Origin: Candidatus Algichlamydia australiensis
GTDB taxonomy: Bacteria; Chlamydiota; Chlamydiia; Chlamydiales; JAJFMI01
NCBI GenBank assembly: GCA_033977065.1
Contig: JAXCHI010000003.1
Span: 628,875-692,874, forward strand
Length of the DNA stretch: 64,000 nt
Direction of reading: 5' to 3'
A program made the position numbers. This document shows positions 42,001-48,000 of this stretch, in pieces. Position 1 is the first letter of the stretch. Every line of letters begins with the position of its first letter.

Positions 42001-45000
42001 AAGTGGTGGCGGCCGATTGGCTTATCAATTACCCCCGCTCCAGGATTGCCCACGCAGATGGCAAGGTACTCTTTTTGCATCTCTCTTTTTGCAAAAAGCT
42101 CGGTCAGTTTCTCATGTGCAATCCTTGTTTTAGCTGCAAGAAGTACTCCTGAAGTATCTTTATCTAAACGATGCACGATACCAGGGCGGTGCTCTTCTCC
42201 AACTTCAGAAATATTTTTGCAGTGATAGAGCAGAGCATTGACAAAAGTGCCAGTTGGGTGACCTGGTGCAGGATGCACGACCATCCCAGCTGGTTTATGA
42301 ACAGCGATGAGGTGCTCATCTTCAAATAAAATGTTAAGAGGGATATTTTCTGGAACAAGCGCTATCTCTTCGACAGGGGGGAAGCGAACAGCAATTAAAT
42401 CTCCGATTTGAGGAATGGTGCGCTTTTTTGCGATCTCTCCATTTAAAGTTACCCCACCATTAATAATAATTTCTTGAAAATAGGTGCGCGAACGTTCTGG
42501 GTAGCGTGAGACGAGAAGTAGGTCAAGTCGCAGAGGTGCTTCAACGGTGAAAGTTTCGCTATCCATAGAGAAATAGCATAACAAAATTTCTTATTAACCA
42601 CCAGACCACATACGGCGCATGCGGCGGTTTTCTCTCTTCCATTGATCATTTTCTTTTTTAATTTCTAGAGAGATATTTTGCTCTAAGTTCTTCATGAACA
42701 TCTGCCACTGCTTGGGGGTAAAGGTCATATTACCCCAAACGTGTCCGCTCCCACCAGATGATGGGGGCTTTTGAAGCTCTGGGTGAGTTGCCTCTGCCTT
42801 TTGAGGGCTCGGCTCTGGGGAAGTAGGACCAACAGCAGACATGCCCCTTTATTTATCAAATAAATAATTTAATTGCTACGCGCTACAAAGGTTGCTTCCA
42901 TCTGAAGAGCCGCTTGTCAAATAGCTATAGTATTGCTCTTCTATTTGCTCTTCTTGCTCTTTAGCATTGTCCCGCCCTTCAGAGGCCGTATTGTGAATAT
43001 CTTTTAATTCCTTTCGCGCATCTGATCGAATTGTCTCTCCGGAAACGTCTGAAAAAACGACAACGGAGTTATCTGGCAAAGTAGAGCCGGCTTCTGCAGC
43101 TCCGTATTGTCCATCACAATCGTAGATGGTATAAGTAGCGCTGGGATCGGTGGTATAGGTTTTCCATATAATTCTATCCTTCCTTACTTTAATAATAACA
43201 AATTGTTAATAAAGTGTAAAATTATTTTTATTTTAATATGTTACTTACTTACAAAGAGTTAGAAAATAAACGTGATTTAATTCTCTTAATTGAAGGCGAA
43301 TTTTGGAAAAAAGTTCGTAAATCACTCTTTATCAAAGAGATAAAAGATTTGCAGAAATGCCTTAGTATTAAGGATTTAGAAGAAGCTTTTTTCGAGCTCG
43401 AAAAAAAAGCGGCCTACCGAGTAGCTGTGGATCTTCTGAGTCGCGCCACACAGCTTGAAGGAGCTCTTAAGAGGAAGTTAAAAGAGAGGTTTCTCTCAGA
43501 AGAGGCGGCTGATTACGCCATAAGACGCTTGCAGGAAATGGGCTATACGAATGAGAGAGATGATGTAGAACGGGCGATTGAGAGCTATTTTCGCAAAGGC
43601 TACGGTCCAAGAGGTGTTTTTGCCAAGCTACGCATGAAAACCTCCCTTTCTGATCAGGAGCTTCAAGCTAAAATTGCTTCTGCAGTCAGTGAGGAGGAGC
43701 AGCTAGAAAAAATGCGCGAGCTTCTTGAAAGGGGAAAGAGTTTGCGTTTTCTTGCCTCTCGTGGATTTCCTTTTCACCTTATTTCTCAGCTGGACGAAAG
43801 TGGGATAACCCGTTAAACTGCAGTTAAGATGAGACGATTGTTCCTCCTGTTTTTTATTCCGCTTTTGCTTTTTGCTCAAGACGAGCAAGAGATCGATGAT
43901 TCTATTATCATTGTGCCACGAGATCAGGTGATCAATGACGATTACTATGCATGGGGCGGTACAATAGAAATCGCGGGTGTGATCAATGGGGATCTTTACG
44001 TCACAGGGTCACAAATTTTTATTGATGGAACGGTTAATGGAGATGTACTTGTTGCAGGAGGGAGTGTCAATATTTCTGGACAGGTTGTTGGAGATTTGCG
44101 TCTTCTCTCTGGCCAAACGTTGATCACAGGGTCAATTGGTCGCAGTGCCACACTGGTTTCGGGGAATGTAGAGATGACATCGCCCGCTTCGATTGGTCGT
44201 AATCTTTCTGCTTTATGTGGGAACATGGACTTAGCGGGACGTTTAGAGGGCAATGGTCATATCTACTCCTCAAGCTTGCGTCTTTCAGATAGGGTAGGGG
44301 GCAACATTGCGGCTTACGTAGGACGCATGCGCGCAACTTCGACGACAAATATTCAGGGGAAATTAGAGTATTGGAGTGATCAGCTGGCACTCATCTCTCC
44401 TGGTGCTACAATCCAAGGCGGTCTCTTGCACCACCCCTCTTTTATTTATACGCTCTCACAGCATCCTTGGCTTAAGTGGTTACAAATTGGATCGAAGTTG
44501 GCAACACTGCTCATGAACTTTTTCTACTCTCTCATTTTGGGATTTATTTTCATGCGTTACTTTCAGCATCGTCTTGATCGCGCATTTTCCGCGATGGAAA
44601 GAAAGCCACTCCAGTCGCTTATTACAGGGGCGCTTGTACTGATCGTCTTACCGCTTATCTCCCTTTTGCTCCTCATGACAATTTTAGGTGTGCCATTTGC
44701 TTTAACGCTTCTGGCAATTAATGTGATCGGTTTCTATACAGGTAAAATCTTCACCATGCTCTTTGTTACTAGGTGGGGGTTAGGGAAACTGCACAAAGAG
44801 AAGTGGCGAAAAATAGGTTATATGCTCACACTAATTGGCTATTTTTTCCTGACTATGATTCCCTATTTTGGACAGGCACTTGTCTTTGCTGTTACGCTTT
44901 TTGGTCTTGGAGCGATTGTCACAGGTCGCGCCGATCTTGCTAAATCTCAGATGTAATCTGTTGATAGTCAGTAAGTAATGCTTGGTATCTTCTTTTATAT

Positions 45001-48000
45001 GTTGGATTTTTTCCTGTTTTCCAACATATCAAATGTGATATGTTGACTGAGTCAACATATTCTGATAATATGTTGAAAAATATGAAAAAATTCAACATAT
45101 GAAAAAGTTTGATCCTGACGCACCGTACAACGAACTCCCTCTACTTCCTCCAAGATACTCCCTCGAAACGCCTGGTGTTTTAAAAGCTTGCATCGAAGCA
45201 AACAAGGAGTTGGCAAAACTAAAGATTGCAGAACGCCTTATTCCAAATCAAACCGTTTTAATTAACTGTATACCTCTTTTAGAGTCTCAAGCAAGTTCTG
45301 CAATTGAAAATATTGTAACAACGACTGATGAGCTCTTTGAGTATGCTCAAAGTGTGCTAACAACAACACCTTCGGCTACGAAAGAGACTCTGCAATACAG
45401 GCAGGCATTAAACCTTGGATATAAATTACTACAGAAAAGACCTTTGAGCACAGCTATTGTCTGTGAAATTTGTTCGACAATAAGACAAGTTGATGTGGAT
45501 ATTAGGGATTTGCCAGGCACAGTTCTTATGAATGATTTTTCTGGTGAAAAGATTTACACTCCTCCTGAAGGGGAAGGTAGATTAAGAAACCTCTTAGATA
45601 ACTGGCTAGATTATCTTCATCAAGATGATGATGGCATAGACCCGCTTATAAAACTTGCTGTTCAGCATTACCAATTTGAAGCGATACACCCCTTTTCTGA
45701 TGGCAATGGTCGCACGGGACGCATTGTCAATTTGTTGTATTTGATACAGAGAGGCTTGTTAGATACCCCGATTCTCTACTTAAGCGGATATATTATTAAG
45801 AATAGGGCAGAGTATTACAAGCGTTTGTTAGATGTTACAGCTAGAGAAGCTTGGGAGGAGTGGATTCTTTACTTTCTAGACGCAATTTTCGAAACATCTA
45901 AGTGGACACTATCTAAAATTTTAGCAATTCAAAAGCTATTAGATGAGTCCTGCGTGTTAATAAAGTTAAAAGCGCCTACAATTTATAGTAAAGAGCTTGT
46001 TGAACTGCTTTTTACACAGCCTTATATCCGGATTCAAAACTTAGTAGAATCCGAGGGAATTGGTCGAGATACAGCATCTAAGCGCTTAAAAATACTTTCC
46101 GGAATAGGCTTTTTGCAAGAAGTAAAAAGAGGGAGGGACAGGCTGTTCATTAACCACAGATTTCTCAATCTTCTCAAACAAAAAGAATAGCATTATTTTT
46201 ACGTCAAAGCTCTCGCATAAAAATAGATCCCAAACGTAAAAACAGGGTGACCAAAAGGATTTAACGACACTGTATAGAACATGCAAAGTTTTCTGCAAAA
46301 CAAAAAAAACAGCCGCGCAAGCGACGTGAAAGGGGCCCTACCCAAAACGAAGTGGAGGGTGGGGAATGAACGCGCGATGCGCTCGATGGCTTCAGATTGG
46401 CTTTGAAAAATTGCGGTGCAGGAGGAAGAAGTAGTGCTTTGCACGGTTTTCCGACGAAACGCAATTTGGCATGCCAAGATGAAGCTCAAAGGGCAGCGGG
46501 GATTTGCCCGACTGTCTCTATTGGCTGTTTTTTTTTAAATTAAACACTAAGATTTTCTGTTACGGAGTACTAGTACTCTGTAACAGTTGCTCTTCAAAAT
46601 TCTACTTGGCCGGGGACGCGTGGAAAAGCAATCACATCACGAATGTTTTCCATCCCTGTAACAAATTGCACAAGGCGCTCAAAACCAGCCCCAAAGCCAC
46701 TGTGTGGCACTGAGCCATAGCGACGTAGGTCAAGGTACCACTTGTAGTGTTCTATATCGAGATCGTGCGCTTTGAATTTTGCTTCAAGAAGATCGAAGCG
46801 CTCTTCACGCTGTGATCCACCAATAATCTCGCCCACTTTTGGAACCAAGATATCGAGCGCGGCTACAGTTTTGTGATCGTCATTTTCTCGCATATAGAAC
46901 GCTTTAATCTCTTTAGGGTAGTCGGTTACAATGACCGGTTTTTTGGCGTGTTTTTCTGTGAGATAGCGCTCATGTTCGGTTTGTAGATCGATCCCCCATT
47001 TAGGTTCAAAGTCAAATTTTTCATTAGACTTTTGCAGAATTTCAACAGCTTCTGTGTAGGGGATATGAGCGAAGGGGGTATCTAAGATATGGTCGAGGCG
47101 TTTGTGCAAGCCTTTCTCTACCCACTTATCGAAAAAGTTTAGGTCCTCTTCGCAATTCTCTTTTGCATATTTCACAAGGTATTTGAGATACTCTTCGCCA
47201 ATTTTAGCTGTATCTGCAAGATCTGCAAAAGCCATTTCTGGTTCAATCATCCAAAATTCGGCTAAGTGACGTGCCGTATGGGAATTTTCTGCGCGGAAAG
47301 TGGGGCCAAAAGTGTAGATATCTGAAAGAGCTGTGGCGTATGCTTCTCCATTAAGTTGACCGGATACGGTCAGGAAAGCAGGCTTTCCAAAAAAGTCTTT
47401 GGAAAAGTCAATGCTACCATCTTCTTTTTTTGGAGGAGCCTGCAAATCGAGTGAGCTCACCTGAAACATCTCACCAGCGCCTTCACAATCAGAGCTTGTG
47501 ATGATTGGGCTTTGCAGATAGAGAAAGCCGTGTTCTTGAAAAAAACTATGAGTTGCAAAGGCAAGGGCATTGCGTACGCGTGCAACAGCGCCCTGTGTAT
47601 TTGTGCGGGGGCGCAAATGCGCAATGGTGCGTAAAAACTCAAAGGAGTGACGCTTTTTTTGCAGAGGATACTCATCAGCAGGGCAGCTCCCAATAAGTTC
47701 AATGTTCTCAACCTGCATTTCAACTTGTTGTTTACCTCCGGGACTCTCTACAAGTTTACCTGTTGCACGAATGGCGGCACCTGTTGTCAGTTGTGAAATG
47801 AGTCCAGAATAACCGGGAAGTTCGCTCTGAACGACAAGTTGAAAGTTGGCAAGTGTTGAACCATCATTGAGCTCGATAAAAGAAAATGTTTTCTGTTCAC
47901 GTTTACTACGAATCCATCCGGCGACTTGTACTTCTTCTCCGATTTTTGATTCTTTAATGAGTTGTTTAATTTTTGTTCTACTTGGCATAATCTCTTAAGA

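Follow-up and report, generated by a model that had tools for sequence, protein, structure and literature searches.

We analysed a 64-kb stretch of DNA (64,000 nucleotides; hereafter, the window) from 'Candidatus Algichlamydia australiensis', in which a gene for a Fic family protein (fic) is preceded by six alternating copies of a short motif that run into its start codon. The encoded protein was 100% identical to a Fic family protein of a 'Candidatus Algichlamydia australiensis' metagenome-assembled genome (MAG). The features of the locus are given below by position in the window, with the motif copies grouped as half-sites into wide (W) and narrow (N) inverted pairs.

44997–45029, wide inverted pair W1: half-site 1 ATATGTTG (44997–45004, + strand) and half-site 2 CAACATAT (45022–45029, − strand); the 7-mer cores are 22 bp apart, start to start, and the spacer is T-rich.
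45038–45060, narrow inverted pair N: half-site 3 (45038–45045, + strand) and half-site 4 (45053–45060, − strand), forming a perfect palindrome with 11-nt arms, ATATGTTGACT/AGTCAACATAT; the cores are 12 bp apart, start to start.
45043–45071, + strand, predicted sigma-70-type promoter: −35 TTGACT (45043–45048), 17-bp spacer and extended −10 TGaTAATAT (hexamer 45066–45071), with 9 of 12 matches plus the TG in a consensus scan.
45068–45100, wide inverted pair W2: half-site 5 (45068–45075, + strand) and half-site 6 (45093–45100, − strand), spanning the predicted transcription start, the 5′ leader and the first 2 nt of the ATG.
45099–46190, + strand, fic: SoFic-type class II Fic protein adenylyltransferase, 363 aa, assigned by open reading frame (ORF), Pfam and SoFic homology.
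45294–45311, + strand, inhibitory-helix motif SSAIEN: residues 66–71, fitting (S/T)xxxE(G/N), the N-terminal pattern that defines class II, upstream of the Fic core.
45687–45722, + strand, Fic catalytic motif HPFSDGNGRTGR: residues 197–208.
45936–46163, + strand, SoFic-like_C region (Pfam PF21248): recognition helix H3 is residues 323–335 (46065–46103) and opens with R323-D324.

A motif search of the window placed the + strand copies of ATATGTTG at 44997, 45038 and 45068, and the − strand copies, read as CAACATAT, at 45022, 45053 and 45093; the form of the half-site in the window is ATATGTTG(A/G). The strict alternation and the spacers of 17, 8, 7, 7 and 17 bp described in an earlier note on this DNA were confirmed on the sequence, as was the overlap, by 2 nt, of the last copy (45093–45100) with the fic ATG (45099–45101). 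The density was likewise beyond chance, as that note had claimed: the window contains 8 copies of the motif, compared with 1.28 ± 1.12 expected from 100 shuffles, of which the highest had 4 copies. Six of the eight copies lie within 104 bp, where approximately 0.002 would be expected. The wide pair pattern ATGTYG-N15-19-CRACAT was matched twice in the window and the narrow pattern ATGTYG-N5-7-CRACAT once, in all cases in the array (0.04 and 0.03 expected, respectively). In a repeat search, 44993–45104 was detected as a single nested imperfect palindrome with outer arms of 37 nt at 86%, the centre being a perfect 11-nt palindrome. The five overlapping palindromes of the earlier description should be replaced by three functional units, namely, converging inverted pairs in the order wide–narrow–wide.

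The array was compared across 80 genome loci and 80 metagenome loci encoding homologues of 50–78% identity; start codons in these loci were set heuristically, and the few wrong ones (e.g. at L071 and L133) blur the positions of the arrays, not the spacing statistics. Nearly all of the homologues have the same half-site (consensus AYATGTCGA), in alternating orientations, in the ~100 bp preceding them, and the start-to-start gaps of 22, 18, 12, 18 and 22 bp between half-sites were exact from Chlamydiia to Deinococcaceae. The hosts belong to Chlamydiota, Proteobacteria, Cyanobacteria, Planctomycetota, Acidobacteriota, Gemmatimonadota and Deinococcota. A fixed six-site template exceeded the maximum of 400 shuffles at 64 of the 80 genome loci, and chains of at least four correctly spaced, alternating half-sites were found at 61 of these 80 loci, compared with 2 of 800 shuffles. 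A search based only on spacing, with no sequence prior, recovered the same core at the same position. Among the closest relatives (L081–L089 and L001; 64–78% amino acid identity), the half-sites and their spacing were kept and the spacers had diverged, giving a phylogenetic footprint. Chains of at least five sites were located directly 5′ of fic at 97 of 156 loci, and once elsewhere in the 770 kb of fetched homologous-locus DNA; no second W or N pair was found in the 64-kb window. The motif cluster is, accordingly, not a repeat independent of fic, a concern raised in the earlier note, and a local or genome-wide repeat as the origin of the array was ruled out by the repeat and pair searches of the window and by the 770-kb chain scan. 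The sole well-spaced chain of at least five sites away from the 5′ region of fic is at +1718 to +1794 after the fic start of L151, ~640 bp past the fic stop and at the edge of a short contig; a second target gene or a second copy of fic might follow it.

In nearly all arrays, the first site is + and the last is − (true of 15 among 18 chains with at least eight sites), indicating that their units are converging inverted pairs. Two kinds of pair were recognized, the wide pair with the form 7-N15-7 and the narrow pair with the form 7-N5-7, shorter by one helical turn, joined by linkers of 11–12 bp. The W spacers are 73.5% A+T, A-rich then T-rich, compared with 43.5% in fic coding DNA. The canonical array, including that of the window, is W-N-W. 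For the Escherichia coli SoFic gene the order is W-N-W-N-W, and the array ends on the ATG of the gene. Of 102 well-scoring arrays, 69 have their last half-site next to the start codon or overlapping it. Longer arrays were detected at L031, L034 and L039 (12–15 half-sites each) and at L053 (Woeseiaceae MAG OZ246973.1), with 21 half-sites in 5.5 perfect tandem 70-bp units, each of W plus N, from about −423 to −67 relative to the fic start. Tandem 70-bp units of W plus N are found in some Woeseiaceae, and arrays of the L053 type far exceed the needs of promoter occlusion.

The array region was predicted to fold stably, both as RNA (−46.5 kcal/mol, z = −8.2 against shuffles) and as DNA (−30.1 kcal/mol, z = −8.5), and one reading of these values is that the array acts mainly as secondary structure, either as an RNA leader with alternative hairpins (1:2/3:4/5:6 versus 2:3/4:5) hiding the start codon or as a DNA cruciform. 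Both folds are far better than those of shuffles, the last arm takes in the first two bases of the ATG, and the W spacers are often self-complementary. In addition, no terminator was predicted between the upstream same-strand gene, which ends at 44956, and fic, making read-through RNA possible. However, a stable fold is expected because the operator is palindromic, and in 102 arrays the arms of a pair were no more complementary to each other (78.9%) than to non-partner arms (79.6%; Wilcoxon p = 0.32). In many pairs, one half-site is strong and the other weak, and the two would mispair, for example ATGTCGA with TAAACAT in E. coli and Shewanella oneidensis. These results suggest selection on the sequence of the half-site and not on pairing. 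Furthermore, a specific 9-bp sequence is kept across phyla, beyond mere pairing potential; the predicted promoter lies inside the array, such that sites 1–4 would stay untranscribed; and a search of 44000–47000 against Rfam (E ≤ 1) gave no match. An RNA element was rejected on these grounds, and we consider a mainly structural role of the array, as RNA or as DNA, to be highly improbable.

With respect to the promoter, the predicted −35 falls inside half-site 3, and the predicted −10 extends into the 5′ flank of half-site 5. The arrangement TTGACT/TTGAAT-17-TAATAT is retained in the closest relatives L081, L082 and L001. The predicted promoters of the proteobacterial class also have a 17-bp spacer, with TTGACg next to site 3 and TATgCT/TAAGCT overlapping site 4. 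As judged from these predictions, the N pair would occupy the core promoter in both window-type and proteobacterial arrays, and W2 would cover the start of transcription, the ribosome-binding region and the ATG. The window locus carries an inverted-repeat operator overlapping its own predicted −35/−10, an arrangement of the type known from the Fic protein CccR (described below). No recognizable Shine-Dalgarno sequence was found in the W2 spacer of the window, where close relatives carry AGGA/GGAG. A 16-nt direct duplication is present at 45077–45109 (AAAATATGAAAAAATT and AACATATGAAAAAGTT), which creates a mini-ORF of six codons, MKKFNI, with its ATG at 45082 and a TGA stop (45100–45102) that overlaps the fic ATG as ATGA. 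It may be speculated that a near-leaderless start on this mini-ORF could couple translation into fic.

The Fic protein of the window matched three Pfam domains above curated cutoffs: Fic_N (DUF4172; PF13784) at residues 28–108 (E 1.9e-22), Fic (PF02661) at residues 140–215 (E 1e-15) and SoFic-like_C (PF21248) at residues 280–355 (E 1.9e-25). A phmmer search against the SoFic chains of the Protein Data Bank (PDB) gave a collinear, full-length alignment over residues 6–360 (E 2.5e-116), and the PADLOC model of the SoFic defence system matched residues 13–361 (E 1e-112). The score for the NCBIfam equivalog NF046030 was 518 bits, under the cutoff of 550, which marks the protein as a clear homologue below the functional-equivalence threshold. 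The earlier note had inspected two of the motifs correctly. The catalytic motif HPFSDGNGRTGR agrees with HPFx(D/E)GN(G/K)R and is invariant in an alignment of homologues (alignment A1), as are the columns of the inhibitory motif SSAIEN, in which E70 is the inhibitory Glu, equivalent to E70 of EcSofic, the E. coli protein, and to E73 of SoFic of S. oneidensis (PMC12249575). Residues corresponding to the dimer interface of EcSofic (E23, K29, I32 and L47) are all present; alignment A1 shows no variation at E23, K29 or L47 and at least 90% conservation at I32, and the model has a helix at residues 25–45. Judged by sequence, the window gene is a full-length SoFic orthologue, with Fic_N, Fic and SoFic-like_C domains and with the catalytic motif and inhibitory Glu intact. 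Experiments on the S. oneidensis and E. coli proteins are the source of what is known of EF-Tu AMPylation and deAMPylation, of the toxicity of the Glu mutant and of anti-phage protection; these may also be properties of the window Fic.

The C-terminal winged helix suspected from the sequence was borne out by both the PF21248 match and an AlphaFold model with the order H1-b1-H2-H3-wing. The mean predicted local distance difference test (pLDDT) value of the model was 72, with 80–94 in the C-terminal domain, where helices were placed at residues 298–303, 312–319 and 323–335 and strands at 309–311, 340–344 and 347–351. Helix 3, the expected recognition helix, begins R323-D324-T-A-S-K, such that residue 324 is the second residue of the helix in the model. 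Across the homologous loci, the core of the half-site was found to track the residue following the Arg that opens helix 3, as follows.

RQ(T/A/S) helix start, 129 loci: core TGTCG.
RD/RF helix start, Planctomycetes–Verrucomicrobia–Chlamydiae (PVC) clade including the window, 11 loci: core TGTTG or mixed TGTTG/TGTCG.
RQ inside the PVC clade (L092), 1 locus: core TGTCG.
RR helix start, 2 loci: core TGTCAC.
RH helix start, 3 loci: core ATGG.
RV helix start, 1 locus: core TGTTCA.
RN helix start, 1 locus: core TGCAC.
KRD helix start, 2 loci: cores ATATAC/ATATGCC.

This covariation, though imperfect, matches the prediction for a winged helix that reads its own operator, and makes the second residue of the recognition helix a candidate specificity determinant.

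A precedent for binding comes from the S. oneidensis orthologue. According to a preprint of July 2026 (bioRxiv 10.64898/2026.07.09.737422), SoFic co-elutes with the DNA upstream of its own gene when dimeric but not when monomeric, with the strongest binding to the start-proximal 100-bp fragment F1 and none to a composition-matched random fragment; palindromes, inverted repeats and operators are not mentioned in that study. In the S. oneidensis DNA of Table S2, we identified N (−148/−136), W (−107/−86), a perfect N (−68/−56) and W (−28/−5, on the ATG), with two of the linkers lengthened by approximately one helical turn. The perfect N pair, ATGTCGA-TTGAA-TCGACAT, flanked by TTTACA and TAAGCT, and the W pair at the ATG both lie in fragment F1; the sequence in the supplementary PDF has 298 nt, not 300, and the borders of the fragments are good to ~2 nt. 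SoFic, also named MloA (S. oneidensis SO_4266; PDB 3EQX, 3ZCN and 9TCH), and EcSofic, the single-gene 'SoFic' anti-phage system, are both collinear with the window Fic over the full length and share its three domains, catalytic motif, inhibitory Glu and residues E23, K29, I32 and L47; the upstream DNA of both species bears the same half-sites and the same grammar of W and N pairs. The window locus differs from SoFic in its core (TGTTG versus TGTCG), in the opening of its helix (RD versus RQ), in having the −35 within site 3 instead of abutting it, in the W2 that is devoid of a recognizable Shine-Dalgarno sequence, and in its host, a chlamydia-like MAG.

Based on these findings, the array is most probably the operator of SoFic, at which up to three dimers bind W-N-W via their winged helices and repress the promoter, giving tight negative autoregulation of a potentially toxic enzyme. 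In this mechanism, SoFic would dimerise via its N-terminal helix, and each protomer would read one half-site with the winged helix-turn-helix (wHTH) at its C-terminus. The narrow pair would lie in the core promoter, the downstream wide pair over the transcription start, the leader and the ATG, and the upstream wide pair would flank the promoter. With up to three dimers bound, RNA polymerase would be excluded or blocked, and the resulting steep negative autoregulation would hold the EF-Tu AMPylase at a low and buffered level. The idea of a self-read, multi-site operator, proposed in the earlier note, is supported wherever it can be computed, that is, by the wHTH fold, the travelling of the array with the gene, the covariation of half-site and helix and the precedent of the orthologue. 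For the window protein, we infer the binding of the sites, the position of the promoter, the stoichiometry and cooperativity of binding, and the net repression. The autoregulatory idea is already in the literature for the SoFic family, while no earlier description appears to exist of the operator grammar or of the way it covaries with the recognition helix.

Several observations weigh against this interpretation. The 22-bp and 12-bp pairs are too different for a rigid dimer to fit both; one dimer geometry might serve the two if the spacer bends, if the C-terminal domain is mobile or if protomers pair in different ways. The preprint assay is qualitative, based on size-exclusion co-elution at 25 μM protein, and resolves fragments rather than sites (bioRxiv 10.64898/2026.07.09.737422). 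Approximately 38% of the loci do not have a chain of at least five sites, in part because their sites are degenerate, their cores variant, their start codons mis-set or their contigs short. The covariation is blurred by arrays of the RD clade that mix TGTTG and TGTCG, by RE proteins that retain TGTCG and by RQ loci with divergent cores (L030, L043 and L055), and the independent switches of the core are few, approximately 6–7 in a count made without correction for phylogeny. The promoter is a predicted one, a consensus match only, and read-through from the upstream gene, if it occurs, would put the array into an RNA that folds very stably.

Another protein could read the sites instead, such as a global regulator of the host or a recombinase or transposase, in which case the array would be the end of a mobile element or a recombination site that merely accompanies fic. 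Palindromes of the TGT-N-ACA type serve other families of regulators as well, and fic looks horizontally acquired: between 44900 and 46400 of the window, the gene and its leader have ~38% GC, compared with 43–46% in the flanking recX-like, bactofilin-like, asnS and nfo genes, the E. coli SoFic copy is located in a MobH island, and a dispersed repeat lies just 3′ of fic in the window. In contrast, no gene besides fic is consistently adjacent to the arrays, the contexts being unrelated (in the window, the neighbours of fic are a gene for a bactofilin-like membrane protein and asnS). The array is always 5′ of fic, in a fixed register with the start codon, and never flanks the gene on both sides; no host regulator is common to Chlamydiota, Cyanobacteria, Deinococcota and Proteobacteria; the half-sites covary with the helix of SoFic itself; and S. 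oneidensis SoFic binds its own array-bearing DNA in vitro. Since the hosts and the flanking genes are unrelated and SoFic is the one common factor, the reader is most simply the SoFic encoded by the gene, and we attach very little probability to a different one. The low GC content of fic and the MobH island of E. coli fit horizontal transfer of the gene together with its operator, and the window locus is probably a typical SoFic module, horizontally acquired, in a chlamydia-like bacterium.

As regards the length of the arrays, a further possibility is that they act mainly at the post-translational level, as a scaffold of DNA onto which several SoFic dimers are loaded and which either sets the AMPylase versus deAMPylase state or sequesters the enzyme, with autorepression as a possible by-product. 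Some arrays are much longer than repression needs, reaching 21 half-sites in tandem 70-bp units, and the two pair geometries are one helical turn apart. AMPylation by SoFic is dimer-dependent, with EF-Tu as the target (bioRxiv 10.64898/2026.07.09.737422), and EcSofic is a dimer; its C-terminal domain, which is needed for toxicity, differs in position between the apo form and the ATP-bound one (PMC12249575). In CbFic2 of Coxiella burnetii, DNA binding mediated by the helix-turn-helix (HTH) induces dimerisation and switches AMPylation to deAMPylation (PMC10628234). CbFic2 has the same three-part domain plan as the window Fic, but its DNA binding was studied on random sequences and appears non-specific, its target is host histone H3, and no operator or autoregulation is described for it. 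On the other hand, a single chromosomal array holds few molecules, and the overlap with the promoter and the start codon is most simply explained by repression; we therefore regard a mainly post-translational role as unlikely. A joint version, in which the array serves a toxin encoded by a single gene as its scaffold and DNA 'antitoxin', is also doubtful: here the mobile C-terminal domain would adopt one conformation on the 22-bp pairs and another on the 12-bp pairs, dimers would polymerise along tandem 70-bp units, and the enzyme would be held in a deAMPylating or inactive state until an infection-linked loss of DNA binding frees AMPylation of EF-Tu. If the scaffold were real, the threshold at which defence is triggered would depend on array length, from 4 to 21 half-sites. 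Within the preferred reading, that of an operator for autorepression, long arrays may also regulate the activity of the enzyme.

Among Fic proteins, autorepression has been shown for CccR (YPK_0951) of Yersinia pseudotuberculosis, which as a dimer represses its own promoter via AGATAATCAT-N26-ATGATAATCT at −35/−10, as established by electrophoretic mobility shift assay, footprinting, isothermal titration calorimetry and lacZ fusions (PMC9755527). Like SoFic, CccR is a class II Fic protein that has a dimerisation helix at its N-terminus and an HTH at its C-terminus, and its toxin and regulator activities are separable. It differs in having a single pair as its operator, not a 6- to 21-site array with 22- and 12-bp pairs, and in being a type VI secretion system effector that targets FtsZ. 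The probable CccR entry of the PDB (7XUX, a 380-aa Fido-domain protein) aligned with the Fic core only (residues 56–265, E 2.9e-10), and homology to CccR across the HTH domain was not found in the search against PDB sequences. As far as sequence indicates, the resemblance to CccR is functional and not one of close family membership. In E. coli D7 (L161; NZ_CP010150.1), a second, different Fic family gene (2918–3931) lies directly 3′ of SoFic in a MobH-relaxase island, and its upstream DNA (2707–2917) contains repeated TTAAGA/TCTTAA-like motifs and AAGATAATGA, which resembles the CccR half-site AGATAATCAT. Other subfamilies of Fic proteins with a wHTH domain may each carry a private operator.

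The locus also resembles type II toxin–antitoxin systems, the operators of which have multiple palindromes and conditional cooperativity and keep the toxin low by negative autoregulation at the promoter. A toxic enzyme with several palindromic sites overlapping its own promoter is common to both, but in the window the toxin, the inhibitor (the Glu of the alpha-inh helix) and the DNA-binding domain are on one polypeptide, and a separate antitoxin gene is not evident. An AS1-like antitoxin (PMC12249575) was looked for as well: in a non-rigorous search, no small gene of this kind was found 3′ of fic in the window, where the sole small ORF on the + strand (46281–46406, 41 aa) had no match in Pfam and falls within the dispersed repeat.

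This repeat had been described as a mobile repeat directly following fic. The dispersed repeat is real and begins ~50 bp after the fic stop, but nothing ties it to fic. It is ~210 nt in length, and the copy after fic (46239–46387, 149 nt at 91%, and 46529–46586, 58 nt at 79%), an inverted copy of 12771–12983, has an extra insert of ~110 nt (about 46407–46515). A hairpin resembling a terminator, with a T-run, is present in it on the − strand (46325–46312), as is a palindrome with a 13-bp stem (46557–46586), and the repeat could be a small-RNA gene or an element like a miniature inverted-repeat transposable element (MITE). A second family of ~170–180 nt is present at 17205–17383, 24953–25131 and 38241–38419, in either orientation and 97–99% identical; its copies are MITE-like imperfect palindromes with 70-nt arms at 77–80% and a 27-nt loop. 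At 62761–63994, reaching the edge of the window, at least five tandem 234-nt repeats of 64–87% identity were detected, which may be a repetitive coding region.

Phages were considered in two ways. The narrow pair ATGTCGA-N5-TCGACAT gave 120 matches in viral contigs, of which 113 were isolated and none was beside a SoFic homologue. This is approximately the chance number for 14 specified bases, and phage-borne operator decoys were rejected. A tblastn search against phage genomes gave one close homologue, 42.6% identical and located in an 8.8-kb 'Bacteriophage sp.' record of human fecal origin that has no annotation; the remaining matches were distant Fic proteins of at most 37% identity, some of them named 'MloA'. 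Carriage of SoFic with its operator by phages was rejected as well.

For the genome of the window itself, the finding is an ordinary one. In the literature searched, SoFic binds within the 100 bp before its gene and its distant relative CccR represses its own promoter, and the SoFic operator itself is not defined there. The window and 156 homologous loci together define this operator by its 9-bp half-site, its wide and narrow converging pairs exact to the base pair, its super-period of 70 bp, the way it overlaps promoter and start codon, and a candidate specificity residue. This definition turns a vague promoter binding into specific, testable sites, and the array provides a cis-element signature for the annotation of SoFic modules. 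SoFic is a widespread single-gene abortive-infection toxin, and the array bears on two questions, namely, by what means such a toxin is prevented from doing harm and what triggers it.

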